Shown: in pieces, positions 508 to 64,000 of the stretch | Numbering within the stretch: the first letter of the stretch is position 1 | How the letters are laid out: each line of letters starts with the position of its first letter | Assembly: GCF_046119375.1 (NCBI RefSeq) | Contig: NW_027362763.1 | Span: 319,424,001 to 319,488,000, forward strand | DNA length: 64,000 nucleotides | Reading direction: 5' to 3' | Source: Phyllobates terribilis | Taxonomy: Eukaryota | Notes under the pieces: generated by a model | Told to the model about the DNA's origin: nothing | The model's input: only the letters and a program-made list of their open reading frames with translations | Database searches by the model: none | Program-made: the position numbers and the translations under genes

Positions 508-1752
508 TGTAGCACCCTGAGGATTCGGCTGCTACAGGGGTATTGCACCTCAACCCAGAGGTGTGATATTCCACTCCCGGGTAAGGATGGAGTGTGGAAC
601 TGAGCTCAGTTAGCTGCATGCACTACACACATCCCATTTCCGAGGAACAGACCGATGGTACTCCCACTAGAGAAATGTGCAGGTACGACAGTGTCTGTTC
701 CTGGCTGGAGTGGGAGGGGGGTGGAACATCCCAGTAGTGTAGGGGCAGATAGGGGGAGCAGTCTGGGTAATGCTAGGAGCTCATTGGGTGCTGGTCACCT
801 GAGCTCACACATAGAGGGAGTATATAAGGTGGGAACCATCTTAGGACAGAGTCTTTGTAGAGTGAGTCAGTCTGTCAGAGTGTAACCTGAGGAGCAGAGC
901 AGACAAGCTCAGCCAGAAGGGCTGACAGGGAGTTGTGGTTCCGGCTGGGCCCAGCTCCAAGGCCAAGAGAGAGAGAGGAGTCTGAAGGACCCAGAGAAAA
1001 CAAGAGGGAACTCCAAGAACCCAAAATTAGATCAGAGGGTGAAGAGTTGGCACCTAGGGTACCGGATCCCAAGCTGGCAGAGAGAGAAAAGCACACCTTA
1101 GCCAGAGACCGGAGGTCGTGGGCAGGATCTGCCACGACCCTCACCAAATCCACCAGGAAGGCAGACCAAGTATAGGGTCAGGGAACCCAGAGGAGGTGTA
1201 CCCACCAAGAGACCCGAGGGAGCCGGACATAGGTGGATCCCTGGTGAGAACGGCCAGAAGAGAGGGAAAGTCAGACAGGAGCTCAGGACCACGCTCCAGA
1301 ACTGCCTGGGGGTTAGCCGAGTCCAGGACCTGGTGGACGCAGCACGGCTCGGGTGGTCACTTCAGGCCAGAGTGACCATAAGAACACCCGTAAGTAAAAC
1401 CCCTGAACTGCACAGCCCGACTCTGAGTCTTCTTGCTGATTCATCCTGCACCTTCACCACCACCATCCTCTACATCTGACCCCCTGAGGCTATACCCCTC
1501 CCGTTGGGGGTTATACTACCAAAGCTGCACACATACCAACAGCCTCAGCGGACCCTGCTGCAGCGGCGGCCTTTTGACCGCAAATCAACGGGTGGCGTAG
1601 TCGACACAAAGAACTCTAATAACATCTGTAGGACTGCCACACACTGAGTTTGACACCCTGGGCACGGACCGGGTCACAGCCACTCGGAGACTACAACCCC
1701 CATCTGATCCGGCTCCGGGTATCCCTAACAACATGGCCCAGGGGGCGCGTCA
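508..1752 (+). repeat. 5' LTR of copy 1 (1245 bp)
   Basis: Direct repeat of 4203-5448 with only a handful of visible differences; followed 4 nt later by the PBS. Confidence 0.95.
821..827 (+). promoter_or_regulatory. Putative LTR TATA box (TATATAA)
   Basis: Same motif at 4516-4522, 60516-60522 and 16081-16087, about 270-315 nt from each LTR 5' end. Confidence 0.6.
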
Positions 1753-1756
1753 ACTT

Positions 1757-1775
1757 TGGCGTAGTCGGCAGGATT
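1757..1775 (+). other. Primer-binding site complementary to the tRNA-Ser(AGA/TGA-type) 3' end
   Basis: TGGCGTAGTCGGCAGGATT is the reverse complement of AATCCTGCCGACTACG-CCA, the vertebrate tRNA-Ser 3' end as I recall it. Confidence 0.9.
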
Positions 1776-3424
1776 ACGTGCCCGCAACAACCGGGTACTG
1801 CGTGCCTGAAGAAAAGTTCATCGTTACCTCAAAAAGAAGTCTGCCGCCGGTTCCGGAGGGTCCCCGCCAACGGACCCCATCACAGGTCGTTTCCCGCCGG
1901 TTGTCCGCCATTTGCAGCTTTTTCCCGCCATCCATGGAGTTTCCCGCCACTGGGAGACGACTCCCGCCATTTCCAAGGATTTCCCGCCTTGGGAGAGCGG
2001 ACGCCATTATGGGCGTGCCAGAGGGTGGCAAGAGGCCACCTCCCATCGTGGGCCAGGTCGAAGAATGGCGCCAAAAGCGGAAACCGCGCCCACCAACAGA
2101 GACTGTGATGCTGGAAGTGTCCATCAGCGTAAGAGAACTGCCCCTGGAACTGACAATCACAAAGTTGCCCCGGGACCACCCTCAATGTGGGCGGAGACTG
2201 AACAAGAGAGCAAAGATGGGTGTCGCCTGGAGCAGTCTGGAGAGAGCGCACCCGGAGACAAGAAGTCTGGAGAGGAGTCCAGAGAGAGCCTACCCGGAGA
2301 TGGAGGGAGAGACAGGCAGCACCGACCCAGTGGTCAGGAGCCTGCTACAAGCCACAACTCCACTAGGCCTAGTGGAGGTCCTGGCACAGCTCCCCCGAGA
2401 CCGGGAGTGTGCACAGACTGCGCTGGAGGGCCTCGCACGGAGGATGGCCCGGGTGCAGCGAGAGACGTTGGCGGAGTGGAGCCGAGAGATGGCCCAGCAG
2501 ACCGAAACCCGACAGCGGAGCACGCCACCCGAGACGAGGAGACAGACCGCCTCTGAGGATGGTGCAGGAGGAGTGAAGGCCGGAGACGGCGCCGAGAAGG
2601 GAGCTGAACGGACGGAGGCAGGTAAAGGGGACGTCTCTACCCCGAGCCAAGAAACCGTGTACCTGTCCCAGCTCCCCGTCGCAGAGCCCGAAATTCCCCC
2701 TGCCGTGCCCGTCGCTGCATCGTCACCGTGCCGGACTAGGCCTCAAGTAGAAGCCGCGGCCGCGACCCCTGTGACGTCACACGCCTCGACCCTGAGCGCG
2801 ACCAAACAGGAAATACCACCGGCCTGGTCGCAAGGCCTAGTACCCCCGGGCGCCGCTATTCCAACAGCGCCCCCTACCTCCGCGGAGCCACCAGCCTGGT
2901 CGCAGGGCTGAGTAACCCAGGGCGCCGCCGTTCTTACGGTGCCCTTTGCCTTTAAGGTGCCCCAGGCCTGGTCGCAAGGCCTGGTTAACCCGGGCGCCGC
3001 TACCATCAACGCGCCCTCAACATCTAGAGTGCCGCACCTGGGTGAAAATCTATTCGCCCAGCATACGTGCCCGGATGGGCAGCCCTTCATATGGCCCCAG
3101 GAGTACATTCAGCTGGAACTCCAGAGAGCAAGGCCCATGTGCGAGCCCCTGATTCCGGCTCCGAAGCCCGTAAAGAGGACCTCGCCCCCGCTGGAGGAGG
3201 CACAGTTCGAGTGGGACCCCACTGGAGAAGACCTCATGGGGTTCACTCAGGAGACTCGGGCGGCCGCAGCGGAGCGTGCAGAGTGCTGCCGCCAGCAGCT
3301 CGAGGTCTTCGAGAGGGAGCGGAGAGAGAGGCGGGTCCGGGAACAGCAAATGCAGATAAGGAGCGCGGAGCAGAAGAGCCGGACCAGGAGGAAACCCCGT
3401 GCAGCTCATGGTCCCCCTTCCACC

Positions 3425-3631
3425 GGGACTGTGATAAAATTCAACATGCAGCATGGGTGGGGCTTCATTAGAGACCATCATACCCCCGGCGACGTCTTTG
3501 TGACCCGCAGAGACGTAGAAATCCATCTGCCGGAGGGACACAGAGGTCGTGACCTGTATGTAGGGGACGAGGTCACCTTCACCCGGCACAAGTGTGCCAA
3601 AGGACCCTACGCCCTCCATGTGCATCGCCTG
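3425..3631 (+). other. Cold-shock domain (Y-box/CSD-like), copy 1
   Basis: GTVIKFNMQHGWGFI...GDVFVT...LYVGDEVTFT...KGPYALHV aligns to YBX GTVKWFNVRNGYGFI...EDVFVH...VGDGETVEF...KGAEAANV, including RNP1 and RNP2. Confidence 0.9.
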
Positions 3632-4193
3632 ACGGAGGAGGAGCTGCGGTGTGAGGAGGAGCAAGAGGGCCCGGACGGGTCTGAAACTGAAACCAACCAA
3701 CAAGAAAGAGCAGGAGGACGCCGTCGTTGAAGTACGGTAGAGAGAGACTGTACATAGTTACCCGTCAGGGTATAAGAACTGTTCTAGTTAAAATATAGTC
3801 CCCGTTGGGACCAGCAGATTGAACTGAAACCCGTGTGTCCCTATTCCCACTGACCGAGGACTGAGAGCGGTCAATCCTCCCTAATACCTGGCCGAGGACT
3901 GAGAGCGGCCATATTTCCCTTGTATATAGTTGCGCTTCCTAAAGCGCCCCCTACTGGTTTTATAGGAAACTGTTTTTCTTGAAGAGACTGTTGCACTTTA
4001 CCCGGTCACAAGTTGCACCGTGACCGGAGGAACCAGAGACAGGAATGTTTACAAGAATGTTATTTATGAAAACGTTTTATTGCTGATGATATATATGATG
4101 TTTTATATGTTTATATGTTGATGTTTATGAAAAATAATTGTATGTTTTGGATGTTTTTATCTTTAACAGCCCGAGGACGTGCTGTGATTTACC

Positions 4194-4202
4194 AGGGGGG
4201 AA
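4194..4202 (+). other. Polypurine tract (AGGGGGGAA)
   Basis: Immediately 5' of the 3' LTR; identical at 63919-63927. Confidence 0.8.
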
Positions 4203-5448
4203 TGTAGCACCCTGAGGATTCGGCTGCTACAGGGGTATTGCACCTCAACCCAGAGGTGTGATATTCCACTCCCGGGTAAGGATGGAGTGTGGAACTGAGC
4301 TCAGTTAGCTGCATGCACTACACACATCCCATTTCCGAGGAACAGACCGATGGTACTCCCACTAGAGAAATGTGCAGGTACGACAGTGTCTGTTCCTGGC
4401 TGGAGTGGGAGGGGGGTGGAACATCCCAGTAGTGTAGGGGCAGATAGGGGGAGCAGTCTGGGTAATGCTAGGAGCTCATTGGGTGCTGGTCACCTGAGCT
4501 CTCACATAGAGGGAGTATATAAGGTGGGAACCATCTTAGGACAGAGTCTTTGTAGAGTGAGTCAGTCTGTCAGAGTGTAACCTGAGGAGCAGAGCAGAGA
4601 AGCTCAGCCAGAAGGGCTGACAGGGAGTTGTGGTTCCGGCTGGGCCCAGCTCCAAGGCCAAGAGAGAGAGAGGAGTCTGAAGGACCCAGAGAAAACAAGA
4701 GGGAACTCCAAGAACCCAAAATTAGATCAGAGGGTGAAGAGTTGGCACCTAGGGTACCGGATCCCAAGCTGGCAGAGAGAGAAAAGCACACCTTAGCCAG
4801 AGACCGGAGGTCGTGGGCAGGATCTGCCACGACCCTCACCAAATCCACCAGGAAGGCAGACCAAGTATAGTGTCAGGGAACCCAGAGGAGGTGTACCCAC
4901 CAAGAGACCCGAGGGAGCCGGACATAGGTGGATCCCTGGTGAAAACGGCCAGAAGAGAGGGAAAGTCAGACAGGAGCTCAGGACCACGCTCCAGAACTGC
5001 CTGGGGGTTAGCCGAGTCCAGGACCTGGTGGACGCAGCACGGCTCGGGTGGTCACTTCAGGCCAGAGTGACCATAAGAACACCCGTAAGTAAAAACCCCT
5101 GAACTGCACAGCCCGACTCTGAGTCTTCTTGCTGATTCATCCTGCACCTTCACCACCACCATCCTCTACATCTGACCCCCTGAGGCTATACCCCTCCCGT
5201 TGGGGGTTATACTACCAAAGCTGCACACATACCAACAGCCTCAGCGGACCCTGCTGCAGCGGCGGCCTTTTGACCGCAAATCAACGGGTGGCGTAGTCGA
5301 CACAAAGAACTCTAATAACATCTGTAGGACTGCCACACACTGAGTTTGACACCCTGGGCACGGACCGGGTCACAGCCACTCGGAGACTACAACCCCCATC
5401 TGATCCGGCTCCGGGTATCCCTAACAACATGGCCCAGGGGGCACGTCA
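4203..5448 (+). repeat. 3' LTR of copy 1 (1246 bp)
   Basis: Direct repeat of 508-1752; ends GCACGTCA, followed by TSD ATAA. Confidence 0.95.
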
Positions 5449-15808: not shown

Positions 15809-17050
15809 TGTGGCGCCCCTGAGGGTTCAGTCGCCACAGAGGTACTGCACCTCACCCAGAGGTGTGGTATCCCCTTCTCTCAGGTAAGGAGGGAGTGCTG
15901 CCCGGAACCCCAACACCTGCATCCAACACTACACTGCTCCAGGCCGGCTGGAAGGGCAAGATGCAATGTATGTTCCTGCTGAGCGCTGTCCCTGGCTGGA
16001 GTGGGGGGAACCAAAGGTAGGGGGAACCAGTAGTGGGTGTGGGTGGAGGAGGCAGTTTGAGGGAGCACTATAGAGTGAGGTATATAAAGGGAAGCCATCT
16101 TAGGGTGGCAGTTCAGTGATTAGTAAGGTGGAGCACAGTCAGGGAGCAGAGTCTCAGTAGGAGCTCTGCTCCACAAGTAGGGCCCAGTCCTAGAGGCCCA
16201 GGAGGGGAGCAGGGAGTAGGCTCCATTTTGTTGAAGGGATCCTAGAGGGTACGGCGAGTGCAGGAAGGCACTCGTATGCACCGCATCTGTCAGAAGACAG
16301 AGGGACCGTAGGCCGCAAGAAGGGGACCGGCCCCTGGCCCAGGCGTGTACTTCAAGTCTCGGCTGGAAAAACCGGAGGCTTCTGGCTTATATAGTCAGTT
16401 GCCGAAGCTGCATTCTAATCCCCAGGAGGGTCAAGCAGGTCCGGGAACTCCGACGGACAGGAGGGACTTCAGAGCACCTGAGTGGGATTGAGAGTGGGCA
16501 GCGCAGGGCAGGAGGGAGAAAGACCCAGCGTGAAGTCGGTCTAGCTAGGAACACGAGAAAGTGGGGTTCTGTCAGGTACTCCTGATTTACCTGAGGAAGT
16601 GCTGAACCCCTGCCTGGTGAACGCAGCGCGACGTGGGAGGCTAGCACCTGTACAGTGCACCAGTGGAACTGCAATAAGAACTGTGACTAAAGACTCGGAT
16701 GACTGCACCGTACTGCCTCCATCCATTCTTTATCTGCGCCACCCTTCCCTCACCGCACTAGAACGCCCAGCGCAACCACCATCTCATTACACTGCCCTGG
16801 AGCTAGCTCTACCTGTGGAGAGCCACACCATCCCTGCTGCCGTAACACCAGCTCCAGAGGACTGCTCCGCAGCGGCGGCTCCCTCTAGCCGCAATCCACA
16901 GGTGGCATCATGAACACTTTCCAAATCCCCTAGAAATTATCCCCCCTTTTACTGACCGCACTGGGTCACGGACCGGGCCAGCTACCGTGATATCCCCCTA
17001 GCAACTAGAGGCCCGGCTGCCGAGTACCCCACGGCCATGGGGGCACGTCA
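15809..17050 (+). mobile_element. Solo LTR of a divergent subfamily related to the CSD element (1242 bp)
   Basis: Starts TGTGGCGCCCCTGAGG...GGTACTGCACCTCACCCAGAGGTG (homologous to the 508 LTR); ends GCACGTCA; TSD CAAA at 15805-15808 and 17051-17054. Confidence 0.9.
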
Positions 17051-29584: not shown

Positions 29585-30194
29585 TATATAGGCAGCTATG
29601 TGGGGGCTCATACTGTATATAGAACGCTATGTGAGGGCTCATCCTGTATATAGGGAGCTATGTGGGGGCTCACACTGTATTTAGGGAGCTATGTGGTAGG
29701 TCACACTGTATATAAGAGCTATGTGGGGGCTCACACTGTATATAAGGAGCTATGTGCAAGCTCATACTGTATATAGGCAGCTATGTGGGGGCTTATACTG
29801 TATATAATAGGCTTTGTGGGGTCTCATACTATATATAGGGGGTTATGCGGGGCTCATACTGTATATAGGGAGCTATGTAGGGGCTCATACTGTATATAAG
29901 GGGCAATGTGTGGGCTCATTCTATATATAGGCAGCTATGTAGGGGCTTATACTGTATATAGGAGGCTATGTGGGGCCTCATACTATATACAGGGGCTATA
30001 TGAGGGCTCATAGTGTATATAGAGATTCTGTGTGGGGCTCATACTGTATATAGGATGCTAAGGGAGGGTTCATCCTGTATATAGAGAGGCTATATGAGGG
30101 TTTACACTGTATATAGGGAGCTATATAGGGGCTTACACTATATTTAGGGAGCTATGTGGGAGGTCACACTATATAAGAGCGATATGTATGGAGA

Positions 30195-30924: not shown

Positions 30925-30981
<57 letters not shown>

Positions 30982-31076
30982 TCCGCTGTATCTCTGCATC
31001 ATGAATCGTGGTATGTGTTAAAGGGGCCCACTGAGACTCTTTCGCCCGGGGCCCAGAAAAACCTGGAGCCGCCCTG
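30195..31076 (-). mobile_element. Truncated non-autonomous element carrying a 27-bp minisatellite (inverted partner of 33522-36232)
   Basis: 30841-31076 is the reverse complement of 33522-33725 and ends CCTGGAGCCGCCCTG; 27-bp units 30220-30840; (TA)n 30929-30978. Confidence 0.75.
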
Positions 31077-39849: not shown

Positions 39850-42070
39850 CCAGCTATTTAAAACTGTGGTTTGTCCGTCACATGGATCACATATAATTGC
39901 GCTGAAAATACTGCTATTTCTGGCATCCAATAAAAATTTGTTTCAGTGTGTCAGTGAAACAATTGACACCAGTTTGCTGTTCAAAATAGTTACCTACAGG
40001 CCAGGTATTTAAAACTGTGTTTTCTCCGTCACACAGATCACATATACGTTTTCAGAAAATACTGCCATTTGTTGCCTCCATTAAAACATTTTTTAGTGTG
40101 TCAGTGACGCAATTGACACCAGTTTGCTGTTGAAAATAGTTACCTACAGGCCAGCCATTTAAAACTGTGTTTTCTCCGTCACACGGATCACACATACGTT
40201 TTCAGAAAATACTTCCATTTCTGGCCTCCATTAAAAATTTGTTTCAGTGTGTCAGTGAAGCAATTGACACCAGTTTGCTGTTCAAAATAGTTACCTACAG
40301 GCCAGGTAATTAAAACTGTGTTTTCTCCGTCACACAGATCACATATACGTTTTCAAAAAATACTGCCATTTGTTGCCTCCATTAAAACATTTTTTTCAAT
40401 GTGTCAGTGACGCAATTGACACCAGTTTGCTGTTGAAAATAGTTACCTACAGGCCAGGTATTTAAAATAGTGGTTTGTCCATCACACGGATCACATATAC
40501 GTTTTCAGAAAATACTGCCATTTCTGACCTCCATTAAAAATTTATTTCAGTGTGTCAGTGAAGCAACTGACACCAGTTTGCAATTCAAAATAGTTACCTA
40601 CAGTGCAGGTATTTAAAACTGTGTTTGCTCCGTCACACAGATCACATATACGTTTTCAGAAAATGCTTCCATTTCTGGTCTCCATTAAAAATTTGTTTCA
40701 GTTTGTCAGTGAAGCAATTGACACCAGTTTGCTGTTCAAAATAGTTACCTACAGGCCAAGTAATTAAAACTGTGTTTTCTCCATCACACAGATCACATAT
40801 ACGTTTTCAGAAAATACTGCCATTTTTTGCCTCCATTAAAATATTTTTTCAGTGTGTCAGTGACGCAATTGACACCAGTTTGCTGTTGAAAATAGTTACC
40901 TACAGGCCAGGTATTTAAAACTGTGGTTTGTCCGTCACATAGATCACATATACGTTTTCAGAAAATACTGCCATTTCTGACCTCCATTAAAAATTTGTTT
41001 CAGTGTGTCAGTGAAGCAATTGACACCAGTTTGCTGTTCAAAATAGTTACCTACAGGCCAGCTATTTAAAACTGCGTTTTCTCCGTCACATGGATCACAT
41101 TATATGTTTCAGAAAATACTGCCATTTCTGACCTCCATTAAAAATTTGTTTGTGTGTCAGTGAAGCAATTGACACCAGTTTGCTGTTGAAAATAGTTACC
41201 TACAGGCCGAGTATATAAAACTGTGGTTTGTCCGTCACGGATCACATATACGTTTTCAGAAAATACTGCCATTTCTGACCTCCATTAAAAATTTGTTTCA
41301 GTGAGTCAGTGAAGCAATTGACACCAGTTTGCTGTTCAAAATAGTTACCTACAGGCCAGGTATTTAAAGCTGTGTTTTCTCCGTCACACGGATCACATAT
41401 ACGTTTTCAGAAAATACTGCCATTTCTGACCTCTATTAAAAATTTGGTTCAGTGTGTCAGTGAAGCTTTTGACACCAGTTTGCTGTTCAAAATAGTTACC
41501 TACAGGCCAGCCATTTAAAACTGTGTATTCTCCGTCACATGGATCACATATACGTTTTCAGAAAATACTGCCATTTCTGACCTCCATTAATTTTTTTTTT
41601 GTGTCTCAGTGAAGCAATTGACACCAGTTTGCTGTTGAAAATAGTTACCTACAGGCCGAGTATATAAAACTGTGGTTTGTCCGTCACACGGATCACATAT
41701 ATGTTTTCAGAAAATACTGCCATTTCTGACCTCCATTAAAAATTTGTTTCAGTGTGTCAGTGAAGCAATTGACACCAGTTTGCTGTTCAAAATAGTTACC
41801 TACAGGCCAGGTATTTAAAACTGTGCTTTCTCCGTCACACGGATCACATATAGGTTTTCAGAAAATACTGCCATTTCTGACTTCCATTGAAAATTTGTTT
41901 CAGTGTCTCAGTGAAGCAATTGACACCAGTTGGCTGTTCAAAATAGTTACTTACAGGCCAGGTATTTAAAACTGTGTTTTCTCCGTCACACGGTTCACAT
42001 ATACGTTTTCAGAAAATACTGCCGTTTCTGGCCTCCTTTAAAAATTTGCTTCAGTGTGTCAGTGGTTTGT
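39850..42070. repeat. ~151-bp tandem array (about 14-15 copies) inside the hAT element
   Basis: AA(T/C)TGACACCAG landmark at 39961, 40111, 40262, 40414, 40565 and onward. Confidence 0.92.
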
Positions 42071-42150
42071 CCGTCACACGGAACACATATAAGTTTGCTC
42101 CAAATTCAGTCATTTGTAGTGAGTGTTGAAGATATTTTCCTCCATTTAAA

Positions 42151-43276
42151 ATGAGCAAGGCACGTGGCAAGGGACGGGGAACTGGACGTGATGGTGATGG
42201 TGCATTCAGAGGCCGAGGCCGTGGGCAAGCTGAAATTGTGCCACAACAAACACCCACATCTTCTCGCTCGACCTTCCTGTCCCAATTAATAGGGGACTGC
42301 AGAACACCACTATTGAACACAGAGCAGTGTGAAAAGGTTATTGGTTGGATAGCAGATAATGCTTCCAGTCACTTAGCCACCACCACCACCTTGTCTTCCA
42401 CACGGTCAAGTCTCAGTAGCTGTGAGTCTGGACCGCATATTCCTCACCCTGAACCTCCTTCCTTCCACCATTCCGAGTGCTCGAAGACAACTGTTCCCAC
42501 ACTTGGACACTCCGAAGAGCTATTCACTTTTCCATTTATAGATTCGGGCCTCTAGCCCGGTTCAGTTGAAGCGGGGCAAGAGGAGATCGCATGTAGTGAT
42601 GCCCAAATATTTGAGCAGCCACGGTCACACGAAGGCAATGGTAGGAAAGTGTCACAAGAGGTGGACGATGATGAGACACAATTGCCAGAAAGTCAGGAGG
42701 AGGACCAGAGTGCGGAAGTGGAAGACGAGGTGGTGGATGATATAGTAACTAACCCAACCTGGCAGGAGGACATGCAGAGCGACAAGAGCAGCACACAGGG
42801 GGAGGGAGGCAGAGCACCCCAACAGGCAGGAAGTAGCAGTGTGGTGGCCGCAGAAAGAAGGTAGGCAACCGTTCCCCCCACTGTCAAAGTTCTGGGAGCA
42901 TTTTGTCAGCCCCTCCCATCGCACAAGCCCTGAGGCGCGGGGTACTCTCACAAGGAGTGCAAAGTTTGGGAAGATGCTGAGGGAGTACCTAGCCAACCGT
43001 ACCAACATCCTCCGTGATTCCTCTGTGCCTTATAATTATTGGGTATCCAAGGTGGATACGTGGAATGAACTGGCTCTCTACGCCTTTGAGGTCCTGGCCT
43101 GCCCTGCCGCCAGCATTTTATCAGAGCGGGTTTTTAGTGCCGCTGGTGGAATTATAACTGATAAGCGCACCCGCCTGTCAACTGAAAATTCTGACAGGCT
43201 GACTCTTATAAAAATGAACAAGGGCTGGATTGGGCCAGACTTCTCAACACCACTGAATGATAGCAGCGTAACATAA
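42151..43276 (+). pseudogene. hAT transposase, internally deleted (acidic N-terminus fused to the C-terminal dimerisation domain)
   Basis: ...YWVSKVDTWNELALYAFEVLACPAASILSERVFSAAGGIITDKRTRLSTEN matches the hATC motif. Confidence 0.88.
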
Positions 43277-43679
43277 ACTCAAATCCGGTGTCTTTCTTTA
43301 GGAGGTGTATTCCCATGCACATTTTCACAACCACCCATGGGTATATGCTTCCTGATTTTGGCTATTTGCTCTTCTCCTCCTCCTCCTCATCCTCATCCTC
43401 CACCACCATATCACCAGGGTGACCATGGTCTGTGATGCAACACCCACATCATTTTTTTAAAGGGTGTTTAAGATGCCCATAAATAAATTTTTTTATAGAG
43501 TATGTTCATGTATACCCCCCAGGGGTAAATGTTTGTCAGCCCATACACTTAGTACATGGGCATTGCTAGTATAGGAGACCCGCTCCTTTCTAATGGGAAC
43601 ATTTTTTTATGAGGCCCTCTAAGTCTCTTCCAAAGGGCATTGGAGTGCCTCCCAATTTTTGGGAGGCACTCCTATGCCC

Positions 43680-44230
43680 TTGCATTCACTGCATAGGCCA
43701 ACACTATGGGAGACCCTCTCCTTTCTAATGGGAATTTGTCATTACTGTGGCCCTGCTCTATGTGTCTTTAAATTGTTAGTGGGGTTTTTCCTAAATTTGG
43801 TGAGCCGTTGGACTCACTGCATACCCTATAACTGTATAGCAGACTCTCTAATTTCTAATGGGAACATGTCGTACTCGTTACTGTGGCCCTGCTCTATTTG
43901 TCTTTAAATTCTTAGTGGGATTTTGTCTAAATTTGGTCAGCCATTGGACTCACTGCATACCCTATAACTGTATAACAGACTCTTTCCTTTCTAATGGGAA
44001 CATGTCGTACTCGTTACTGTGGCCCTGCTCTATGTGTCTTTAAATTGTTAGTGGGGGTTTTCCTAAATTTGGTCAGCCGTAGGACTCAGTGCATACCCTA
44101 TAACTGTATAGCAGACTCTCTCCTTTCTAATGGGAACATGTCGTACTCGTTACTGTGGCCCTGCTCTATGTGTCTTTAAATTCTTAGTGGGGTTTTTCCC
44201 AAATTTTGGCAGCCCTTGCAGTCACAGCAT
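43680..44230. repeat. 136-bp tandem repeat, about 4 copies
   Basis: GGGAACATGTCGTACTCGTTACTGTGGCCC recurs with period 136 (ORF starts 43858, 43994, 44130). Confidence 0.85.
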
Positions 44231-44729
44231 GGGCATTACCACTATAGGAGACTCGCTCCTTTATAATGGGAACATTTTTTTGACTGAGACCCTCCTCTAT
44301 GTCTCTTCAAAGGGGTATTGGGTTGCGTCCGAATTTTTGGCAGCCCTTGTAGTCACTGCACGCAATAACAGTATAGGAGACCCACTCGTTAATAATGGGA
44401 ACAACAAAGCATAGCCGGCTAATGGCTCTCTAACAATAGCAAGGGGCGACTGCTGGCCTTTTAAGAATAGTAAGGGCCGCCTGATGACCCTATAAAAATT
44501 GGCTTTGTGACTTTCAGAGTCCCTCCATCATAAATGAAACAGGATGTATCTGATGATGTGTCACATACCACATTGCCAGATAAGGTTGTAAAATATTAAA
44601 ATTACATTTCCCGGTGAATGCATTTGTCTTAAAAAATAACGTAAAAAAAAAAAACAGTAGGATCTTTCTTTAGTATAAAAAACAGAGTCGCCAATGTAAC
44701 CTTAATGTAATCACATTGTTCAGCTCCTG

Positions 44730-44970
44730 CACCTCCTCCTCCATCTCCGAAATGACCACATCAGTCACAAGCTGTAAGCACTGCAGCACTGCCTTGGCCA
44801 AGCGGCAACAGGCTGTGCTGAAGATAACATGCTTAATGCTTAGGTGACAAACCGCCGCCCAGTGCTGCAGAGTTGTTGAAAGCTGTAACACAGCAGTCTG
44901 ATCTGGGGCTCTCACCACTGAACATACATCCAGGAATGGTCGTGTGTGACAATGGGCGGAACCTGGTGAT
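44730..44970 (+). pseudogene. Displaced central fragment of the hAT transposase
   Basis: Translates to ..KRQQAVLK..LSPLNIHPGMVVCDNGRNLV (CDNG motif). Confidence 0.7.
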
Positions 44971-45303
44971 GAAGAAATGACAGCCGTAGTAAATACTGTT
45001 TCCCTCTATGCCAGTCCTTTCACCGAGCTAAAGAATATGGCTGTGGTGAAATACAACTCCCACTGAGAAGCTGTTTCAGATTGAAAAACATTGGGCTCAC
45101 CACAGGATTTGATTCTGAGGGCTCACCTTTCTCCCCCGCTCAAGAGCCCCATAGCAGCTGCAAAGTTAGCGCTATCATGAACTCTCCTGATGTACAAGCC
45201 AGAGCACACCAGAGGATTCTCTGGTGGGACCGTCCAACCCTGCCGAGAAGCAGTCCTGGCTAAGAAAAGTGTGTGGACACTCTATGGCTGCTTTTTTACT
45301 GAG

Positions 45304-45428
45304 GTGGAAACCCACGCAAACACGGGGAGAACATACAAAATCCTTGCAGATGTTGTCCTTGCTGGGATTTGAACCCAGGATCCCAGCGCTGCAAGGCTTC
45401 AGTGTTAACCACTGATCCAATGTGCTGC
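45304..45428 (-). mobile_element. tRNA-derived SINE fragment (V-SINE-like)
   Basis: Minus strand: A-box TGGATCAGTGG, B-box GGTTCAAATCC, then GTATGTTCTCCCCGTGTTTGCGTGGGTTTCC. Confidence 0.7.
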
Positions 45429-45559
45429 ATTCACTCTCTGATATCTAACAGGCTGGAGAAACTTGCAGCTACTGCCACTTTATCTTCAGCTCCTTTGTGA
45501 GAAACTAATGTATTTGGGCAGCCACTCAGTCTACCAAATAAAATTCCTGAGAAGGAAAT

Positions 45560-46925
45560 TGGGGATGGCTTCGCTACTGGTACTGGGGGCAGTGCTAATA
45601 CCATGGCGTTGTACCATAGTTTACTGGAAATATTCCAGGCTGCTAGGAGGCAAGCAAATTCCCGCAGAAAAGTATCGGCAGTAATGTTCAGGGACCCTCG
45701 CTTGTGGAAGACGAAGACAACACCGGGAGAAATAGTGGCGGCTGGGGACAGAGTATGGACACGAGGCATGCGACATGAGGTTGTGAAAAGCTTCTGCCTC
45801 CACGAGCCTAAAATGCCACATTTCAAGTGAAAGCAGCTTTAGAGGACTTCTTGGGAGAAATTATAGCCGGAGTAGATTTGGTTTCCCAAGTCCTTTCACC
45901 AAGCTAAAGAATATGGCTGTGGTGAAATACAACTCAGCAAAAAAAGCTGTGGACTGGCTCCATACCGTCCTGGCCACATTCACTTGACCACATGTTTGTG
46001 GTTAGGCGGTCCTTCATAATAAGTTCACTGGGGAGGGCACGAGTAATGTTATGGGACCCGTGCTTGTGGAAGGCGAAGATGATACCGGGAGAAATAGTGG
46101 CGGTTGGGGACCAAGTATGGACACTTGGCCGCCGGCATGAGGATGTGAAAACCTTTTGCCTCCAAAAGCCTAAAAGGCCACATTTCAAGTGAAAGCAACT
46201 TTAGAGGACTTCCTGAGAGAAATGACAGCTGGAGTACATATGATTTCCCAAGTCCTTTCACCAAGGTAGAGAATATGGCTGTGGTGAAATACAACTCAGC
46301 AAAAAAAGCTGTGGACTGGCTCTGTACCGTCCCTGGCCACATTCACTTGACCACATGTTTGTGGCTAGGCGGTCCTTCCCAGTAAGTGCACTGGGGAGGG
46401 CACGGGTAATGTTGTGGGACCCGTGCTCGTGGAAGGTGGAGACGATACCGGGAGAAATAGTGGCGGTTGGGGATCGAGTATGGACACCCAGCCGCCGCCG
46501 GCATGAGGTTGTGAAAAGCGTCCACCTCCATGAGCCTAAAAGGCCACATTTCAAGTGAAATCAGCTTTAGAGGACTTCCTGGGAGAAATGACAGCTGGAG
46601 TAGATAAGGTTTCCCAAGTCCTTTCACCAAGCTAAAGAATATGGCTGCAGTGAAATACAACTCAGCAAAAAAAGCTGTGGACTGGCTCCCTACCGTCCCT
46701 GGCCACATTCACTTGACCACATGTTTGTGGTTAGGCGGTCCTTCCCAGTAAGTTCACTGGGGAGGGCACGGGTAATGTTGTGGGACCCGTGCTTGTGGAA
46801 GGCGGAGACAACACTGGGACAAATAGTGGTGGCTGGGGACCGAGTATGGATACCCGGTCGCCGCCGCCATAAGATTGTGGACAGCTTCCACCTCCATGAG
46901 CCTAAAAGGCCACATTTCAAGTGCA
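45560..46925 (-). repeat. ~365-bp tandem repeat (4 copies) derived from hAT transposase coding sequence, antisense to the element ORF
   Basis: Unit ends at 45826, 46188, 46554, ~46917; minus-strand peptides LEMWPFRL..VP(S/N)RHYFSR and NITRAL..RLTTNMWSSECGQG. Confidence 0.8.
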
Positions 46926-52560: not shown

Positions 52561-52841
52561 TATACATACATATATATACATATATATATATATATAAAAT
52601 GTGTTTTAAAATGTTATTATACATACTAAAAGTGTGATTTCATACAAAAATGTAAAATCCTACAAACATATACATTATGACAAAATTTAAGACCTTTTCT
52701 TTCTTCATATTATAGCCATTTTCAAATACAATTTTTCGATATTTCATTCATATATGTAAAAAAATAAATTAATAAAAAATAAAAATATATTTACAGGGTG
52801 GTCCAAAAGTAGGTGGACAGAAAGTGTAATAAGATTATGAA

Positions 52842-53020
52842 GGGGTAGATTTATCAAGCATGGTATAAAGTGAAACTGGCTCAGTTGCCCTTAGCAACCA
52901 ATCAGATTTCACTTTTCATTCCTCACAGACTCTTTGGAAAATGAAAGGTGGAATCTGATTGGTTGCTAAGGGCAACTGAGCCAGTTTCACAGATCTAGTT
53001 TTCACAGATAAATCTCCCCC
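52842..53020. mobile_element. Palindromic MITE inserted in the DD41D 5' UTR
   Basis: GGGGTAGATTTATC...GATAAATCTCCCCC ends; long internal hairpin GTGAAACTGGCTCAGTTGCCCTTAGCAACCAATCAGATT. Confidence 0.75.
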
Positions 53021-53058
53021 AAATCTGTTTTCTTTTCAGATAATTCAGATAACACATA

Positions 53059-54121
53059 ATGGAAAATAATTTAAATACAGATCAAAGAAAATGGATTTTA
53101 ACAGAGTATTGGAAATCTCAAAATGCTGAAACCGTTACAGCAAATTGGGTTGAAACATTTGGTACTCAAGCCCCAAAGTGACAAACCATTTACCGCATTC
53201 GTGACAAATTCAATGCCACTGGCTCAATCCTTAATGCTCCAAAAACTGGTCGACCCAAAACAGTCTGTACAGAAGATAATAAACAACTTGTTGCTGAAAC
53301 ATTTGTTCAGAGTCCAAAAAAGTCCACCAGAAGAGCCTCTTTGGAATCGGGAATTTCACGAGCTTCTATCATGCGAATCCTGAAATCTATTGGGTGGAAA
53401 GCTTATCGTCCATGTCTAATTCATGGTTTATTGGAGGATGATCCAGACAGGCGGCTGCAATTTAGTGAGATTATGCTTAATGAAATTGAAGAAAATCCAG
53501 TAATTTTAGATAACATTATGTGGAGTGATGAAGCTTCTTTCAAATTATCCGGCCATATTAACCGACATAATTGTATTTACTGGTATAATGAGAACATGCA
53601 TTTAACATTAGAGCAACAACTAAATGAGCCTGGTGTCAATGTTTGGGGTGGTATTTCAAGTTTTGGTGTTTTAGGACCAATATTTTTTGATGGAACAGTC
53701 ACAGGAGATAAGTATCTCGAAATTCTAATGAATCAAGTTGTTCCCCAGTTACAGCAACAGCCTAATTCAAATGACCTTTATTTCCAACAAGATGGGGCCC
53801 CTCCACATTATTCAAGAGTAGTCCGCGAGTATCTTGATGAAACATTTCCTAATGAATGGATTGGCCGAAGAGGCCCACTTGATTGGCCGGCACGTTCACC
53901 AGACTTGACCCCAATGGATTTTTTCTATTGGGGAGTACTCAAGGACAAAGTTTATAGTCGAAAATCAAAAAGTGTCAGTGATTTGAAAAATTTGTACATA
54001 AGAGATGCTTTCAAGAAATTAATACCCAAAGAGACTTGTGCAAAAAAGTTTGTCGAAGCGTAAGAGGCGACTTCAAAGCTGTGCAAATTGTAATGGAAAA
54101 CAGTTTGAGCACCTGCGTTGA
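53059..54121 (+). pseudogene. DD41D transposase with one stop (53179-53181) and one frameshift near 54000
   Basis: MWSDEASF; QQDGAPPH-41 aa-D (SPDLTPMDFF). Confidence 0.92.
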
Positions 54122-54270
54122 TAAAATTTAAGGGCTTTTGTATTATTGTTCAGAATAAAATTTAATTGTCAATGTTATGCTTGTGTTAGTAAATATAATT
54201 TTATATATAAATCAAAATAAATGATATTATTTTTTGGCCATCTACTTTTGGACCACCCTGTGTATGTATG

Positions 54271-54320
<50 letters not shown>

Positions 54321-54343
54321 CCTGTCAATATTTATTTTATATG

Positions 54344-54625
54344 TCATATACCCTCTATAATATCATTTAATCCATCTGGGTATAATGTACCCAGACGGAA
54401 GATCCAGTATGATTCTTTCCGGTTTAACTTTTTTACCCTATTGCTACAATTCTCAGGTATTTGCTCCAACGGGGTCACAGAAATATTGAATGTTTTATTA
54501 TGCTTCAAACATAAGTGCCGAGATAAGCGGTGTTTTAAAAACCTATTTTTGGTATTGTGCCTGTGGTCATTCATACGGGATCGTAGGGACTGGATGGCCC
54601 GACCCACGTATTGCAGGCCACACAT
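54344..54625 (-). pseudogene. GIY-YIG endonuclease C-terminus of a Penelope-like element
   Basis: CGLQYVGRA..LRSRMNDHR...KESYWIFRLGTLYPDGLN. Confidence 0.88.
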
Positions 54626-55249
54626 ATATGAATGAAATATCGAAAGACTGTATTTGCAAATGGCTATAATATGAAGAAAGAAAGGGTCTTAAATTTTGTC
54701 ATAATGTATATGTTTGTAGGATTTTACATTTTTGTATGAAATCACACTTTTAGTATGTTTAATAACATTTTAAAAGGCATTTTATATATATAGTAAAATT
54801 ATATTTATAGTGTTTTTAGAAAAGGAAATACTTTCTGTGTGAAAAAATTTGTTGTGCGAAAACATTTTTTTGAAGAAAAAAAAACTGTATAAAAGCCATT
54901 TAGTATATGGGTTTTGTTAGATTCCTCGGAGTGCAAAATCCGGCATATCTGAGTATCTGGGTGTGTCTGAAAAACAGATCTTTCAGTCCCCACCCAAAAT
55001 GACAAGCAGGGATATCTGCTATAAAATGTGTGTAGATAGATCTGTTTATATGCATGATGTTATACCTAAGGAAGGGTCAAAGAATTCGAAACCGGTTGTA
55101 TTTTAGTTTGAAATAAAAATTATTTTTGAATCCGAATATCAAGTTCCATCATCATCCTTCAGGAGCACATATTGCTAGGAAAAACATTTACAAAGTGGTA
55201 TCGCCCATGAAAGCTCTGTCCAGTGCTCTCATCAGCTCCCAGATTTCTG

Positions 55250-59007: not shown

Positions 59008-60166
59008 CAGGTGCATCTCACAAAATTAGAATATCATGAAAAAGTTAATTTATTTCAGTTCTTCAATACAAAAAGTGAAATTCATATATTATATAGAGTC
59101 ATTACAAACAGAGTGATCTATTTCAAGTGTTTATTTCTGTTAATGTTGATGGTTATGGCTTACAGCCAATGAAAACACAAAAGTCATTATCTCAGTAAAT
59201 TAGAATACTTTATGACAACTGCTTGAAAAATGTTTTTAAAATCCAAAATGTTGGCCTACTGAAATGTATGTTCAGTAAAGGCACTCAATACTTGGTCGGG
59301 GCTCCTTTTGCATCAATTACTGCATCAATGCGGCGTGGCATGGAAGCGATCAGCCTGTGGCACCGCTGAGGTGTTATGGAAGCGCAGGTTGCTTTGATAG
59401 CAGCCTTCAGCTCGTCTTCATTGTTGAGTCTGGTGTCTCTCATCTTCCTCTTGACAATACCCCATAGATTCTCTGTGGAGATAAGGTCAGTCGAGTTTGT
59501 TTACCAATCAAGCACAATGATCCTGTACAGGTATTGGTACTTTTGGCAGTGTGAACAGATGCTAAGTCCCGCTGGAGAATGAAATTTTCATCTCCAGAAA
59601 GCTTGTCGGCAGAGGGAAGCATGAAGTGCTCTAAAATTTCCTGGTAGATGGCTGCGCTGACTTTGTTTTTGATAAAACACAGTGGACCTAAACCAGCAGA
59701 TGACATGGCTCCCCAAACCATCACTGATTGTAGAAACTTCATACTTGACCTCAAGCAGCTTGGATTGTGTGTCTCTCCACTCTTCCACCGGACTCTGGGA
59801 CCTTGATTTCCAAATGAAAATTGGAACTCTGGGACCTTGTGGAGTGTGTCAATGACTGCCTTCTGGACATCTGTCAAGTCAGCAGTCTTGTCTTCCCCAT
59901 GATTGTGGAGTCTACTGAAACAGACTAAGGGACCTTTTTTAAATGCTTAGGAAGCCTCTGCAGGTCTTTTTTGTTAATTATTTTAATTTACTGAGATAAT
60001 GACTTTTGTGTTTTCATTGGCTGGAAGCCATAATCATCAACATTAACAGAAATAAACACTTGAAATAGATCACTCTGTTTGCAATGACTCTATATAATAT
60101 ATGAGTTTCACTTTTTGTATTGAAGAACTGTTTTTGATGATATTCTAATTTAGTGAGATGCACCTG
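59008..60166 (-). mobile_element. Internally deleted Tc1 transposon
   Basis: TIRs CAGGTGCATCTCAC(A/T)AAATTAGAATATCA; fragment SVMVWGAMSSAGLGPLCF. Confidence 0.88.
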
Positions 60167-60170: not shown

Positions 60171-60202
<32 letters not shown>

Positions 60203-60203
<1 letters not shown>

Positions 60204-61403
60204 GTAGCACCCTGAGGATTCGGCTGCTACAGGGGTATTGCACCTCAACCCAGAGGTGTGATATTCCACTCCCGGGTAAGGATGGAGTGTGGAACTGAGC
60301 TCAGATAGACTGCATGCACTACATACATCCCATTCCAGAGGAGCAGGCCGACGGTACTCCCACTTGGAAATGTGCAGGTACAACCGAGCCTGTTCCTGGC
60401 TGGAGTGGGAGGGGGGTGGTACATCCCATGTAGTGTAGGGGCAGATAGGGGGAGCAGTCTGGGTAGTGATAGGAGCTCATTGGGTGCTGGTCACCTGAGC
60501 TCACACATAGAGGGATATATAAGGAGGGCACCAACTTAGATCAGGGTCAGACGCTGAGAACAAGTCAGTTGGAGAGGAGAGAGAAGGAAACAGCAGCCCT
60601 GGAGAGAGAGAGAGGAGAAAGAAAGAGAAAGACCCAGAGGGGGAAGACTGAAGGGACCCAAGAACCCAAATTAGAGCACCGGGTGAGGAGTCAGCACAAG
60701 GGTACCGGAACCCAAGCTGGTGGGGGCAAAAACATCCCTAGCCAGAGACCGGAGGCTGTGGGCAGCATCTGCCACGGCCACCCACTACATCCACCCTGAA
60801 GGCATACCACATGGAGGGTCAGGGAACCTAAGGCCAAGGGTTGCCCAACAGAAGGCCCGAGGGAGCTGGACCTAGGTGGATCACTGGTGGGGACGGCTGA
60901 AGAAAGGACAGAGGGAGAGCTCAGGGCCACGCTCCGGACTTGTTTGGGGGTTGGCCGGATCCAGGACCTGGTGGACGCAGCACGGCTCGGGTGGTCACTA
61001 ACAGCTGGAGTGACCGAAACATCAGCAGTAAGTAAACTCCCTTAACTGCACAACCCGAGTCTGTCTTCATTGCCGGCTGCACCGCACCACCACAACCCCC
61101 ATCCTCTGCGCCTGTCCCCTCTGAGGCTATACCCCTCCCGTTGGGGGTTATCCCACCAAGCTGCACATCCACCATCAGCCTCAGCGGACCCTGCTGCAGC
61201 GGCGGCCACAGTGACCGCATTACAACGGGTGGCGTAGTCGACACAAAAGAACTCTTATAACATCAGTAAGGACTGCCACATAACACATAGCTTGACGCCC
61301 TGGGCACGGGACCGGGTCTCAGCCGCTCGGAGACTACAACCCCCCATCTGATCCGGTGCCGGGTATTCCCCTCAAAAAGGAATATGTCCCAGGGGGCGCG
61401 TCA
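60203..61403 (+). repeat. 5' LTR of copy 2 (1201 bp)
   Basis: First 73 nt repeated exactly at 63928-64000; ends GCGCGTCA before the PBS. Confidence 0.93.
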
Positions 61404-63468
61404 ACTTTGGCGTAGTCGGCAGGATTACGTGCCCGCAACACCCGGGTACTGCGTGCCTGAAGAAAAGTGCAAGTTTACCTCAGAAAGAAGTCTCCCGCCG
61501 GTTCCGGAGGGTCCACGCCATCGGACTCCATCACCAGTCGTTTCCCGCCGATTGTCCGCCATTTCCAGCTTGTTCCCGCCATCTGCAGAGTTTCCCGCCA
61601 CTGGGCGACGCTTCCCGCCAAAACCGCAGATTTCCCGCCTTGGAAGAGCAGCGGACGCCATTATGGGCGTGCCAAAGGAGAGCAAGAGGCCACCTCCCAT
61701 CGTGGGCCAGGACAGAAAATGGCGCCAAAAGTGGAAACCGCCCCCACCAACGGAGACTGTGATGCTGGAGGTGTCTGTCAGCGTGAAAGAACTCCCCCTG
61801 GAGCTGACAGTCACCGAGTTGCCCCGGGACCGCCCTCGAAGTGGGAGGAGACGAAAGAGAAGAGAAAAGATGGGTGTCGCTTGGAGCAGTCTGGAGCGAG
61901 CGCACCCGGAGGCAGGAAGCCTAGAAAGGAGCAGCAGAAAAGCTCACCCGGAGATGGAAAGAGAGCAGAACAGCACCGGCCCGCTGGCCAGGAGTCTGCT
62001 AGAGACCGAGGAAGGAGGGCAGAGCAGCACCGGCCCGCTGGCCAGGAGCCTGCCGGAAGCAGAGCAGAGCAGCACCGACCCGATGGTCAGGAGCCTGCTG
62101 GAGTCCACAACCCCGCTAGGTCTAGCGGAGATCCTAGCGCAGCTCCCCCGAGACCGGGAGTGTGCACAAACAGCCCTGGAGGGCCTCGCAAGGAGGATGG
62201 TCCGGGTACAGCGCGAGATACTGGCGGAGTGGAGCCGGGAGATGGCCCAGCAACCAGAGACCAGTCAACGGAGCACGCTACCCTGGAAGAGGAAGCAGAC
62301 CGCCTCTGAGGATGGCGCGGGAGGACCCAAGGCCGGAGACGGCGCCGAGGAGGGAGCCGAACGCATGGAGGCAGGTAAAGGGGACGCCTATACCCCAAGC
62401 CGTGACACCGCTTACCTGCCCCAGCTCCCCGTCGCAGAGCCCGAAAGTCCCCCTGCTGTGCCCGTAGCCGCCAGGTCACCGCCATGGACTAGGCCCCGAC
62501 CGGAAGCCGCCGCAGCGACCCCTGTGACGTCACGCGCCCCGACCCGGAGCGTGACAAAGCAGGAAGTACCACCAGCCTGGTCGCAAGGCCTAGTACCTCC
62601 GGGCGCCGCACCACCAACAGCGCCCCCTACCTCCGCGGAGCCTCCGGCCTGGCCGCAAGGCCAGGTAGCCCAGGGCGCCGCCGTCCTAACGGTGCCCTTC
62701 ACCTTCCAGGTGCCCCAGGCCTGGCCGCAAGGCCTGGGCAACCCGGGCGCCACCACCACCGCGCCCGCGCCCGCAACACCAAGGGTGCCATATCTGGGAG
62801 AGGACCCCTTCAGCCAGCTAGCGTGGCCGGACGGGCGGCCTTTCATCTGGCCCGAAGAATTCTTGGAACTGGAGCGACAAAAGAAGTTAGGTCCCCTGTG
62901 TGAGCCCCTGATTCCGGCTCCAAAGCCCGTGACTCGGGTCTCGCCTCCACTAGAAGAAGCCCAATTCGTGTGGGACCCCACGGGAGAAGATTTGATGGGG
63001 TTCACCGGAGAGACTCGGGCAGCTGCAGCTGAACGCACAGAGTGTTGCCGTCAACAGCTGGCAGAGTTTAAGAGAGAACGGGAGGAGAGGCGGGTCAGAG
63101 AGCAATGGGCCCAGACCCGCAGCGCGGAGCAAAAGAGTCGGACCAGAAGGGACCCCTGTGCAGCAAATCGTCCCCGTACCATCGGGACGGTAATAAAGTT
63201 TAATGCGCAGCATGGGTGGGGCTTCATAAAGGACCGGAACACCATGGGTGACGTCTTCGTTACCCGACGGGACGTCGAGTCCCACCTGCCAGAGGGTCAC
63301 AAAGGCCGTGACCTCTACGTCGGTGACGAGGTAACGTTCACCCGGCACAAGTGTGCCAAGGGACCTTACGCCCTCCACGTGCATCGCCTGACAGAGGAGG
63401 AGTTGCGGTGTAGGGAGGAGGAGCCAGAAGACCCGAACGGGTTCAAGGCTAGAAGGTACTATGACTGA
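61384..63468 (+). CDS. 694-aa retroelement protein: Pro/Arg-rich low-complexity and helical N-terminus, C-terminal cold-shock domain
   Basis: Uninterrupted ORF, colinear with copy 1; CSD at 63184-63390. Confidence 0.9.
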   Translation: MSQGARQLWRSRQDYVPATPGYCVPEEKCKFTSERSLPPVPEGPRHRTPSPVVSRRLSAISSLFPPSAEFPATGRRFPPKPQISRLGRAADAIMGVPKESKRPPPIVGQDRKWRQKWKPPPPTETVMLEVSVSVKELPLELTVTELPRDRPRSGRRRKRREKMGVAWSSLERAHPEAGSLERSSRKAHPEMEREQNSTGPLARSLLETEEGGQSSTGPLARSLPEAEQSSTDPMVRSLLESTTPLGLAEILAQLPRDRECAQTALEGLARRMVRVQREILAEWSREMAQQPETSQRSTLPWKRKQTASEDGAGGPKAGDGAEEGAERMEAGKGDAYTPSRDTAYLPQLPVAEPESPPAVPVAARSPPWTRPRPEAAAATPVTSRAPTRSVTKQEVPPAWSQGLVPPGAAPPTAPPTSAEPPAWPQGQVAQGAAVLTVPFTFQVPQAWPQGLGNPGATTTAPAPATPRVPYLGEDPFSQLAWPDGRPFIWPEEFLELERQKKLGPLCEPLIPAPKPVTRVSPPLEEAQFVWDPTGEDLMGFTGETRAAAAERTECCRQQLAEFKREREERRVREQWAQTRSAEQKSRTRRDPCAANRPRTIGTVIKFNAQHGWGFIKDRNTMGDVFVTRRDVESHLPEGHKGRDLYVGDEVTFTRHKCAKGPYALHVHRLTEEELRCREEEPEDPNGFKARRYYD
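61408..61426 (+). other. Primer-binding site (tRNA-Ser)
   Basis: TGGCGTAGTCGGCAGGATT, identical to copy 1. Confidence 0.9.
63184..63390 (+). other. Cold-shock domain, copy 2
   Basis: GTVIKFNAQHGWGFIKDRNTMGDVFVTRRDVESHLPEGHKGRDLYVGDEVTFTRHKCAKGPYALHV. Confidence 0.9.
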
Positions 63469-63927
63469 GATAGTACAAAGGACTGTATATAGTTACCTGT
63501 CGGGGTACCCAAGTAACCGTGGCTGCTTTAAAGTTTAGTCCCCGTTGGGACCAGTGAACAGTTCAACCCGTGTGTCCCCTACCCAAACCAGGCTGAGGAC
63601 TGTGAGCAGCCATCCCTTTCCCTTTACTTGGCCGGGGACTGAGAACGGCCAAATTTCCCTGTACATAGTTGCGCTTTCTAAGGCGCCCCCTACCGGTTTT
63701 ATAGGAGAAACCATTTTTCTAGAGGGACTGTCGCACTTTTCCCGGACACACGTTGCACAGTGTCCGGAGGAGGAACCTGAAACCAGAGACGACGAGAATG
63801 TTTATATGAAAAAGTTTTATATATATATAATGTTTTATATGTTTTATATGTTCATATAAAAATTTTGTATGTTTTGGTGTTTTATGTCTTACAGCCCGAG
63901 GACGTGCTGTGATTTACCAGGGGGGAA

Positions 63928-64000
63928 TGTAGCACCCTGAGGATTCGGCTGCTACAGGGGTATTGCACCTCAACCCAGAGGTGTGATATTCCACTCCCGG
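63928..64000 (+). repeat. Start of the 3' LTR of copy 2 (truncated by the window edge)
   Basis: Identical to 60203-60275; preceded by the PPT. Confidence 0.95.

Follow-up and report, generated by a model that had tools for sequence, protein, structure and literature searches.

Long terminal repeat (LTR) retrotransposons that cannot replicate on their own are usually non-coding or Gag-derived. MaLR, maize Bs1 and the helper-dependent transducing retroviruses rely on a helper, and in Bs1 and the transducing retroviruses captured host sequence replaces viral genes. The LARD and TRIM groups possess LTRs, a primer-binding site (PBS) and a polypurine tract (PPT) without pol and are non-coding (PMC5718144). 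Among amphibians, Xenopus 1a11 and Xretpos are LTR elements with a single open reading frame (ORF), no described pol and reported embryonic expression; the 71-kDa protein of 1a11 is Gag-like, ORF copies number in the tens, and the words “cold shock” are absent from that paper (PMC4585706). The locus described here lies in a 64,000-nucleotide window of the Phyllobates terribilis genome (contig NW_027362763.1, positions 319,424,001 to 319,488,000), the whole stretch of DNA that was analysed. Its subject, element 2, is a complete LTR retroelement of 4.93 kb that starts at 60203 and extends 1,128 bp beyond the window, and its only ORF ends in a cold-shock domain (CSD). The element is real, a non-autonomous LTR retrotransposon that carries an unusual payload kept by selection and whose helper has been identified, and as far as its sequence allows a judgement it is almost certainly a satellite.

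Compared with these systems, the satellite is like LARD and TRIM in its LTRs, PBS and PPT without pol and in its reliance on a helper, but unlike them it is coding. With 1a11 and Xretpos it shares the form of an amphibian LTR element with one ORF and without pol; theirs are Gag-like ORFs in tens of copies, whereas the satellite ORF has no Gag similarity, neither capsid nor CCHC motif being found in it, and roughly 10,000 or more copies are present, a separation drawn from published description and not from sequence comparison. It differs from Bs1 and the transducing retroviruses in that purifying selection has long acted on its captured domain throughout the subfamilies, and in that this domain probably works for the element itself. 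The features of element 2 are as follows, with dN/dS denoting the ratio of nonsynonymous to synonymous substitution rates.

60199-60202: left target-site duplication (TSD), TATA
60203..61403, + strand: 5' LTR (TG...CA, 1,201 bp)
61095..61607, + strand: cis block common to satellite and helper, made up of the terminal ~310 bp of the LTR, then the PBS and the first part of the leader (~200 nt)
61230..61240, + strand: second PBS-like copy, 11 nt, within the 3' part of the LTR; the helper has one too
61384..63468, + strand: 694-codon open frame, codons 1-93 being cis-leader
61408..61426, + strand: PBS, 19 nt complementary to tRNA-Ser(TGA/AGA)
61663..63468, + strand: probable coding sequence, 601 aa, with a helical domain, Pro/Ala-rich disordered linker, Glu/Arg helix, CSD and charged tail
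62080..62253, + strand: N-terminal helical domain, dN/dS 0.12; weakly predicted partner of helper Gag
62371..62380, + strand: splice-donor-like motif, conserved as DNA; splicing use putative
63016..63150, + strand: Glu/Arg-rich helix of 45 residues ahead of the CSD, dN/dS 0.13
63184..63384, + strand: cold-shock domain, dN/dS 0.09
63875..63927, + strand: acceptor-like pyrimidine tract and AG (63895 is the first base after it), with the PPT at 63919-63927
63928..64000, + strand: start of the 3' LTR (locus L021), with 1,128 bp more past the window end and then TSD TATA

The complete LTR cis-machinery claimed by the first-pass annotation, made by a model from the letters alone, is present in full: TG...CA LTRs, PBS, PPT and TSD all occur in element 2, and TSDs match in 17 of 18 resolved loci. 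Once the 3' LTR is read past the window, the LTR pair is identical at 1201/1201 positions and is flanked on each side by TATA. The claimed 19-nt tRNA-Ser PBS is exactly complementary to this genome's own tRNA-Ser(TGA/AGA) genes with CCA appended, the tRNA identity being that called by ARAGORN in 3 of 4 candidate loci. Reverse transcriptase (RT), RNase H (RH), integrase (INT) and protease (PR) were found neither in element 2, by a Pfam search of the ORF, nor in the CSD elements of 71 loci.

The open frame begins 20 nt inside the LTR and then reads through the PBS. In gag-bearing helper elements the sequence that matches its codons 4-77 is untranslated leader, and codons 8-93 have a dN/dS of 0.85. 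The 255-nt interval from the PBS to 61663 contains no ATG and five TTCCCGCC-type repeats, as does the helper leader likewise, and the ATG at 61663 (GCCATTATG context) is found again in young and old subfamilies. Taken together, the leader match, the high dN/dS and the recurrent ATG make it likely that the actual protein is the 601-residue product starting at 61663; the single 694-aa ORF reported at first pass therefore exists as an open frame but overstates the protein by 93 codons of cis-leader. An additional ORF at 61719 in the +1 frame was rejected as a gene, as its length varies from 31 to 196 codons across most copies; it joins the main frame in three older ones.

The only significant Pfam family in the ORF is CSD (PF00313; residues 601-667 of the 694-residue translation, E 4.5e-9, above cut-off). 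An AlphaFold model from a 20-row alignment has a mean pLDDT of 49 and is confident only for the CSD and the 45-residue helix before it; confidence is moderate for helices at residues 140-195 of 601, the remainder is predicted to be disordered, and no capsid fold appears in it. The modelled CSD, a five-stranded oligonucleotide-binding (OB) fold, superposes on CspA (TM 0.87 by target length) and also matches the CSDs of YBX1/2, with Foldseek returning CspA, CspB and the YBX1/2 CSDs, so that the terminal CSD with a Y-box-type loop noticed initially is genuine on both profile and predicted fold. The Phe residues of RNP1 and RNP2 are retained. In the ESM Atlas the C-terminal part had no match scoring above 0.81, and the N-domain none that was usable. 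A viral fold library yielded CSDs of phages and giant viruses along with other OB folds, with no retroelement among the 50 matches listed. The CSD is like that of YBX1/2/3 in its Y-box-length loop, its top profile match and the Pro/Ala-rich region ahead of it; it differs in being only about 32% identical, intronless, inside an LTR element and without a conserved Trp and His. Furthermore, the satellite protein has extra helical domains, and about 27 residues follow its CSD in place of the long C-terminal domain of alternating basic and acidic character that marks Y-box proteins.

The partner supposed by the first-pass annotation, autonomous and of Gypsy type, was found through the sequence shared at the LTR 3' part, PBS and leader. 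A pattern of LTR end plus PBS with different following bases has 7,145 genome matches, the first 18 of which comprise 9 loci with Gag, 1 Gag/satellite chimera, 4 CSD-ORF subfamilies, 3 members of a short CSD-less family and 1 unclear locus. In 8 of the 9 Gag loci pol continues after Gag, and in none of the 9 does a CSD lie inside the element. Whole helper examples are about 7.9 kb long, with 1.0-kb LTRs, 4-bp TSDs and no CSD. Their Gag has a weak PNMA match (E 1.4e-4, under cut-off) and a weak CCHC knuckle, and their pol encodes protease, RT, RNase H and integrase in the order PR-RT-RH-INT, a combination which, with the 4-bp TSD, resembles PNMA/Gypsy12_DR-like Ty3/Gypsy elements. The satellite, by contrast, has the common cis signals only, with its own U3, and without gag and pol it does not belong among autonomous Ty3/Gypsy elements. 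Satellite and helper are about 70-72% identical across the cis block (up to 84% for an older subfamily), and their U3 parts have little similarity; the alignments thus show a satellite with its own U3 that mimics the LTR 3' part, PBS and leader of the helper while encoding no Gag or Pol.

Between helper Gag and the satellite ORF there is no profile similarity (hhalign probability 0.1), and no gag or pol occurs between the LTRs of CSD elements among the 71 loci. The possibility that these are internal deletions of a pol-bearing element, with the CSD as part of an ordinary gag, is therefore not borne out, and the ORF, which as first described holds no capsid, CCHC, protease, RT, RNase H or integrase, is unrelated to helper Gag/Pol, a gag remnant being contradicted by these comparisons. 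An earlier candidate helper, a PNMA-Gag family at L071-L080, was rejected, having another LTR and primer site and no ORF similarity. That Gypsy family is itself abundant, and one copy has a 1,747-codon open frame.

Several smaller features accompany the cis signals. Satellite and helper LTRs hold a second, PBS-like copy of 10-11 nt that precedes the true PBS by 148-178 nt (in the window at 61230-61240 and 1593-1603; also in L101, L106, L113 and L114). The donor-like GCAG|GTAA at 62371-62380 is kept as DNA in 64 of 65 matches, some from overlapping loci, its variants being mostly synonymous or I/V/L exchanges, and the acceptor-like site upstream of the PPT (window 63875-63933) is present in both satellites and helper. 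A putative join of 62374 to 63895 would drop the CSD in frame and end in frame at the LTR start; no retro-copied junction of this kind was found in the genome, nor among the 15 of 31 joints listed, and in one contig of run X5, of uncertain kind, a loose end falls precisely at 63895. Element 2 itself is inserted in a TA run adjoining an inverted-end element at 59056-60130.

Plus-strand transfer between two templates in one particle produces unlike LTRs within one target duplication. Such an insertion is L117, in which a helper 5' LTR is followed by a body and 3' LTR of the satellite family and both flanks show the TSD CTTA. An exact helper-U5/PBS/leader pattern gave 144 matches in the genome; the next 14 hybrid-pattern loci are 8 plain helpers, 4 hybrids, 1 locus whose two ends carry the same mosaic LTR, and 1 of another subfamily. 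Matching 4-bp TSDs flank all four resolved hybrids (L117, L141, L142 and L146), L144 being the one without a resolved TSD, and the template switch from helper to satellite is located at or near the PBS. Since matching TSDs surround unlike LTRs, recombination between separate insertions is not the explanation, and the hybrids point to co-packaging of satellite and helper RNA, as read from their sequences. Mosaics in both directions, helper LTR with satellite fragment and the reverse, also occur (L108, L109, L110 and L140).

Selection on the ORF was estimated by pooled pairwise Nei-Gojobori dN/dS, the pairs not being independent. Across 91 young pairs the values are 0.12 for the N-domain, 0.55 for the Pro/Ala region, 0.13 for the coil and 0.09 for the CSD, and between young and older subfamilies 0.42, 0.63, 0.13 and 0.16, respectively. 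Among 47 young coil+CSD blocks, collected by motif anchoring, which favours conserved copies, nonsynonymous to synonymous (N:S) counts are 48:24 for singleton changes and 45:79 for shared ones (p 5e-5); over all 61 blocks the counts are 60:22 and 131:142. As singletons look near neutral and shared changes do not, selection acts during replication, and on this substitution pattern the CSD is seen to be under purifying selection in replicating lineages and not in inserted copies, which argues against host domestication of most copies.

The family is abundant and young. Within the genome of 10.57 Gb, exact patterns find 12,475 LTR-PBS junctions of the window type and, at the 3' end, 23,866 satellite-type junctions (CSD-less relatives included) and 25,115 of helper type. 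When the C-terminal 155 aa were searched, all 150 of the 150 scored matches were 97-100% identical; the 40,130 first-look candidates from this search are not copy numbers. Of the first 21 junctions listed, 20 comprise 16 with CSD, 3 in which the CSD was lost by different deletions and 1 that is gag-bearing, and 13 of the 16 CSD-bearing loci have an open frame of 679-767 codons. Same-type LTR pairs at junction loci have 0-13 differences per about 1,200 bases, and at the top-hit loci (n=20) the pairs are identical in 14 of 18 resolved, two loci being tandem arrays with common LTRs. These counts suggest about 10,000 young CSD copies as a lower estimate, with the satellite roughly as abundant as its helper and making up roughly 1% of the genome if every 3' junction stands for a whole copy. 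A narrow CSD pattern (1,301 matches) was not used as a copy count, as it misses most subfamilies.

Homologues at the protein level come from Ranitomeya variabilis, R. imitator, Anomaloglossus baeobatrachus and Bufo bufo, plus unnamed records, the Bufo one being entered as “Y-box-binding protein 2-A-like”. Through the Bufo CSD a second CSD-LTR family was found in the same genome, about 4.6 kb long, with a TSD, the same Ser PBS, 1,024-bp LTRs 99% identical and a single ORF that includes a CSD, as seen in the 2 loci resolved out of 4; it has 466 exact junctions. At the DNA level it resembles neither the first family nor that family's helper, and its LTRs hold no PBS-like second copy. A CSD tree places type A (the window family with the Ranitomeya and Anomaloglossus proteins) apart from type B (the second family with Bufo). 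A family profile that included P0120 and P0096 ranks YBX1/2 first at 60 bits, ahead of CspA at 52 and LIN28 at 32-34, and a Pro/Ala-rich region stands ahead of the element CSD, as it does in YB-1 (PMC6040738). Capture of the CSD long ago from a Y-box gene has moderate support from these sequence likenesses. The strongest PF00313 matches in the genome were rejected as its donor, being CSDE1-like copies. Those at L051-L052 (G000:C1:734432000-734452000) are intron-poor and carry insertions. A third CSD type near the Bufo proteins occurs at L149/L164 (G000:C9:374391472), with no LTR pair within 6.5 kb, and the database model P0151, which fuses a type A CSD ORF with a Harbinger-like transposase, is probably an annotation artefact. 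A paper on Styela concerns bacterial Csp transfer and not elements (PMC7540406). That both families are deletion derivatives of an unseen autonomous Gypsy element carrying the CSD gene as an accessory ORF is quite improbable: two DNA-unrelated families with a common Ser primer site could reflect such a shared ancestor, and the helpers read are a small sample, but none of the 9 gag-bearing loci has a CSD, no gag or pol occurs within CSD elements of the 71 loci, and no Gag/Pol fusion is found among 8 protein matches of 211-2000 aa, a weak point limited to that size range.

From these results a mechanism may be proposed in which particles of helper Gag would package the satellite RNA, tRNA-Ser would prime it, and helper Pol would copy and integrate it, steps which are strongly supported. 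The protein would be a private Y-box-like ribonucleoprotein factor: its CSD and basic helix would bind satellite RNA, preferentially its own translation template, and stabilise it, while the N-terminal helical domain would dock on helper Gag, so that satellite RNA competes better for helper particles. The CSD protein would thus be an enhancer and not an essential part. For host YB-1, stabilisation of retroviral RNA has been reported, as has support of particle production by murine leukaemia virus, mouse mammary tumour virus and human immunodeficiency virus (PMC6040738). Complex prediction for N-domain and helper Gag scores 0.58 against 0.00 for the best of 3 controls, with runs sharing at least 25% of contacts and partner pLDDT at least 52; 51 of 78 solved complexes attain the mark, as do 2 of 108 mismatches, and scores up to 0.60 include all 4 mismatches that passed, so the prediction lends weak support. 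Hepatitis delta-type satellites have a single gene, for an RNA-binding protein that links their own RNA to the helper particle. The likeness is a functional analogy only, with no homology, another replication mode and a Gag link that here is weakly predicted.

The whole chain, a satellite whose captured Y-box-type RNA-binding protein favours its own RNA in helper particles, is thought somewhat probable, and a number of observations weigh against it. CSD-less relatives make up 3 of 18 LTR-end+PBS loci and 3 of 20 junction loci, and a short CSD-less family recurs (L082, L096 and L097); because such relatives spread, the CSD protein is either dispensable or active in trans, and a strict cis model is weakened accordingly. 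In 61 of 61 CSD blocks Lys or Arg replaces the Trp of KWFN, and Thr, Asn or Asp the His of VFVH; as these are residues of the YBX nucleic-acid-binding face, binding by the element CSD may be altered. In the score band of the Gag contact, passes are more often wrong than right; 8 of the 14 further hybrid-pattern loci are plain helpers; a CSD tree without YBX rows joins the element CSDs weakly (80/31); and the non-independent pairs and motif-anchored blocks temper the selection estimates. The short family, seen also at L110 and L111, has a separate ORF of 150-160 codons whose end falls in the last CSD strand, and carries helper-type or satellite-type LTRs.

Trans action also belongs to a counter-defence role, in which the CSD protein would shield element RNA from attack by Piwi-interacting RNAs or tRNA fragments, or sponge small RNAs, for the helper/satellite group as a whole. 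YBX1 binds tRNA fragments, and sharing in trans fits the way in which CSD-less relatives have spread as well as the comparable numbers of the two 3' ends; this role is nevertheless unlikely, as a freely shared benefit is hard to fit with dN/dS near 0.1 unless it is family-specific, and the conserved N-domain is left unexplained. Oocyte Y-box proteins mask maternal mRNA as messenger ribonucleoprotein, and the Y-box-like CSD might likewise mask satellite RNA and postpone its copying until a permissive embryonic stage. Poison-frog ova are rich in Gypsy RNA (PMC6278860), which fits such storage, yet the lack of a long alternating basic/acidic tail after the CSD makes it improbable. CSDs are established nucleic-acid chaperones, and the weak predicted Gag contact could bring the protein into particles, where it might replace nucleocapsid, as the first-pass annotation suggested, or anneal the tRNA primer; this is very improbable, however, because the helper brings its own CCHC Gag and CSD-less elements integrate with normal LTRs and TSDs. 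The favoured reading, that of a particle-competition factor, may extend to an old, widespread class of frog LTR satellites in which the captured Y-box CSD acts as an RNA-to-Gag bridging, particle-hijacking protein, with at least 2 unrelated LTR families in this genome and a contribution to poison-frog genome expansion, though so broad a claim is doubtful.

No description of a CSD in an LTR element was found in the full-text literature, a coverage outside which subscription papers, Repbase and Dfam lie, and in two reviews of accessory domains neither “cold” nor “CSD” occurs; automated repeat libraries probably contain the element sequence unnamed. Here, then, one non-autonomous LTR element keeps a host-type RNA-binding domain under strong selection. 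Host YB-1 being a known cofactor of retroviral RNA, a retroelement with its own YB-1 version offers a direct way to test satellite competition for helper particles, and the hybrid-LTR insertions are natural records of co-packaging. Database entries such as the Bufo “Y-box-binding protein 2-A-like” may be transposon ORFs.

The remaining repeats of the family and its relatives in the window are the following.

508..5448, + strand: element 1, sister subfamily, with LTRs at 508-1752 and 4203-5448 and TSD ATAA
Element 1 parts, + strand: PBS 1757-1775, ATG 2009, premature stop 2909-2911, CSD 3422-3625
15810..17050, + strand: solo LTR of a related family, TSD CAAA
20137..21135, - strand: solo LTR ~66% identical to the helper LTR

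Element 1, noted at first pass as a second, diverged subfamily copy, is real: its LTRs are 99.5% identical (1239 identities, 5 mismatches), it has a TSD, and it is ~80% identical to element 2, with its ORF interrupted by the stop. Elsewhere in the window, inverted-end elements stand at 26161-27541, 27934-29586, 52587-54792 and 59056-60130, three with Tc1-like transposase ORFs recognised by eye. Tandem arrays occupy 29570-36000 and 36860-46800, with units of 31-36 nt, 151 nt and about 390 nt, and a piggyBac-like ORF fragment, also recognised by eye, lies near 35821-36600.

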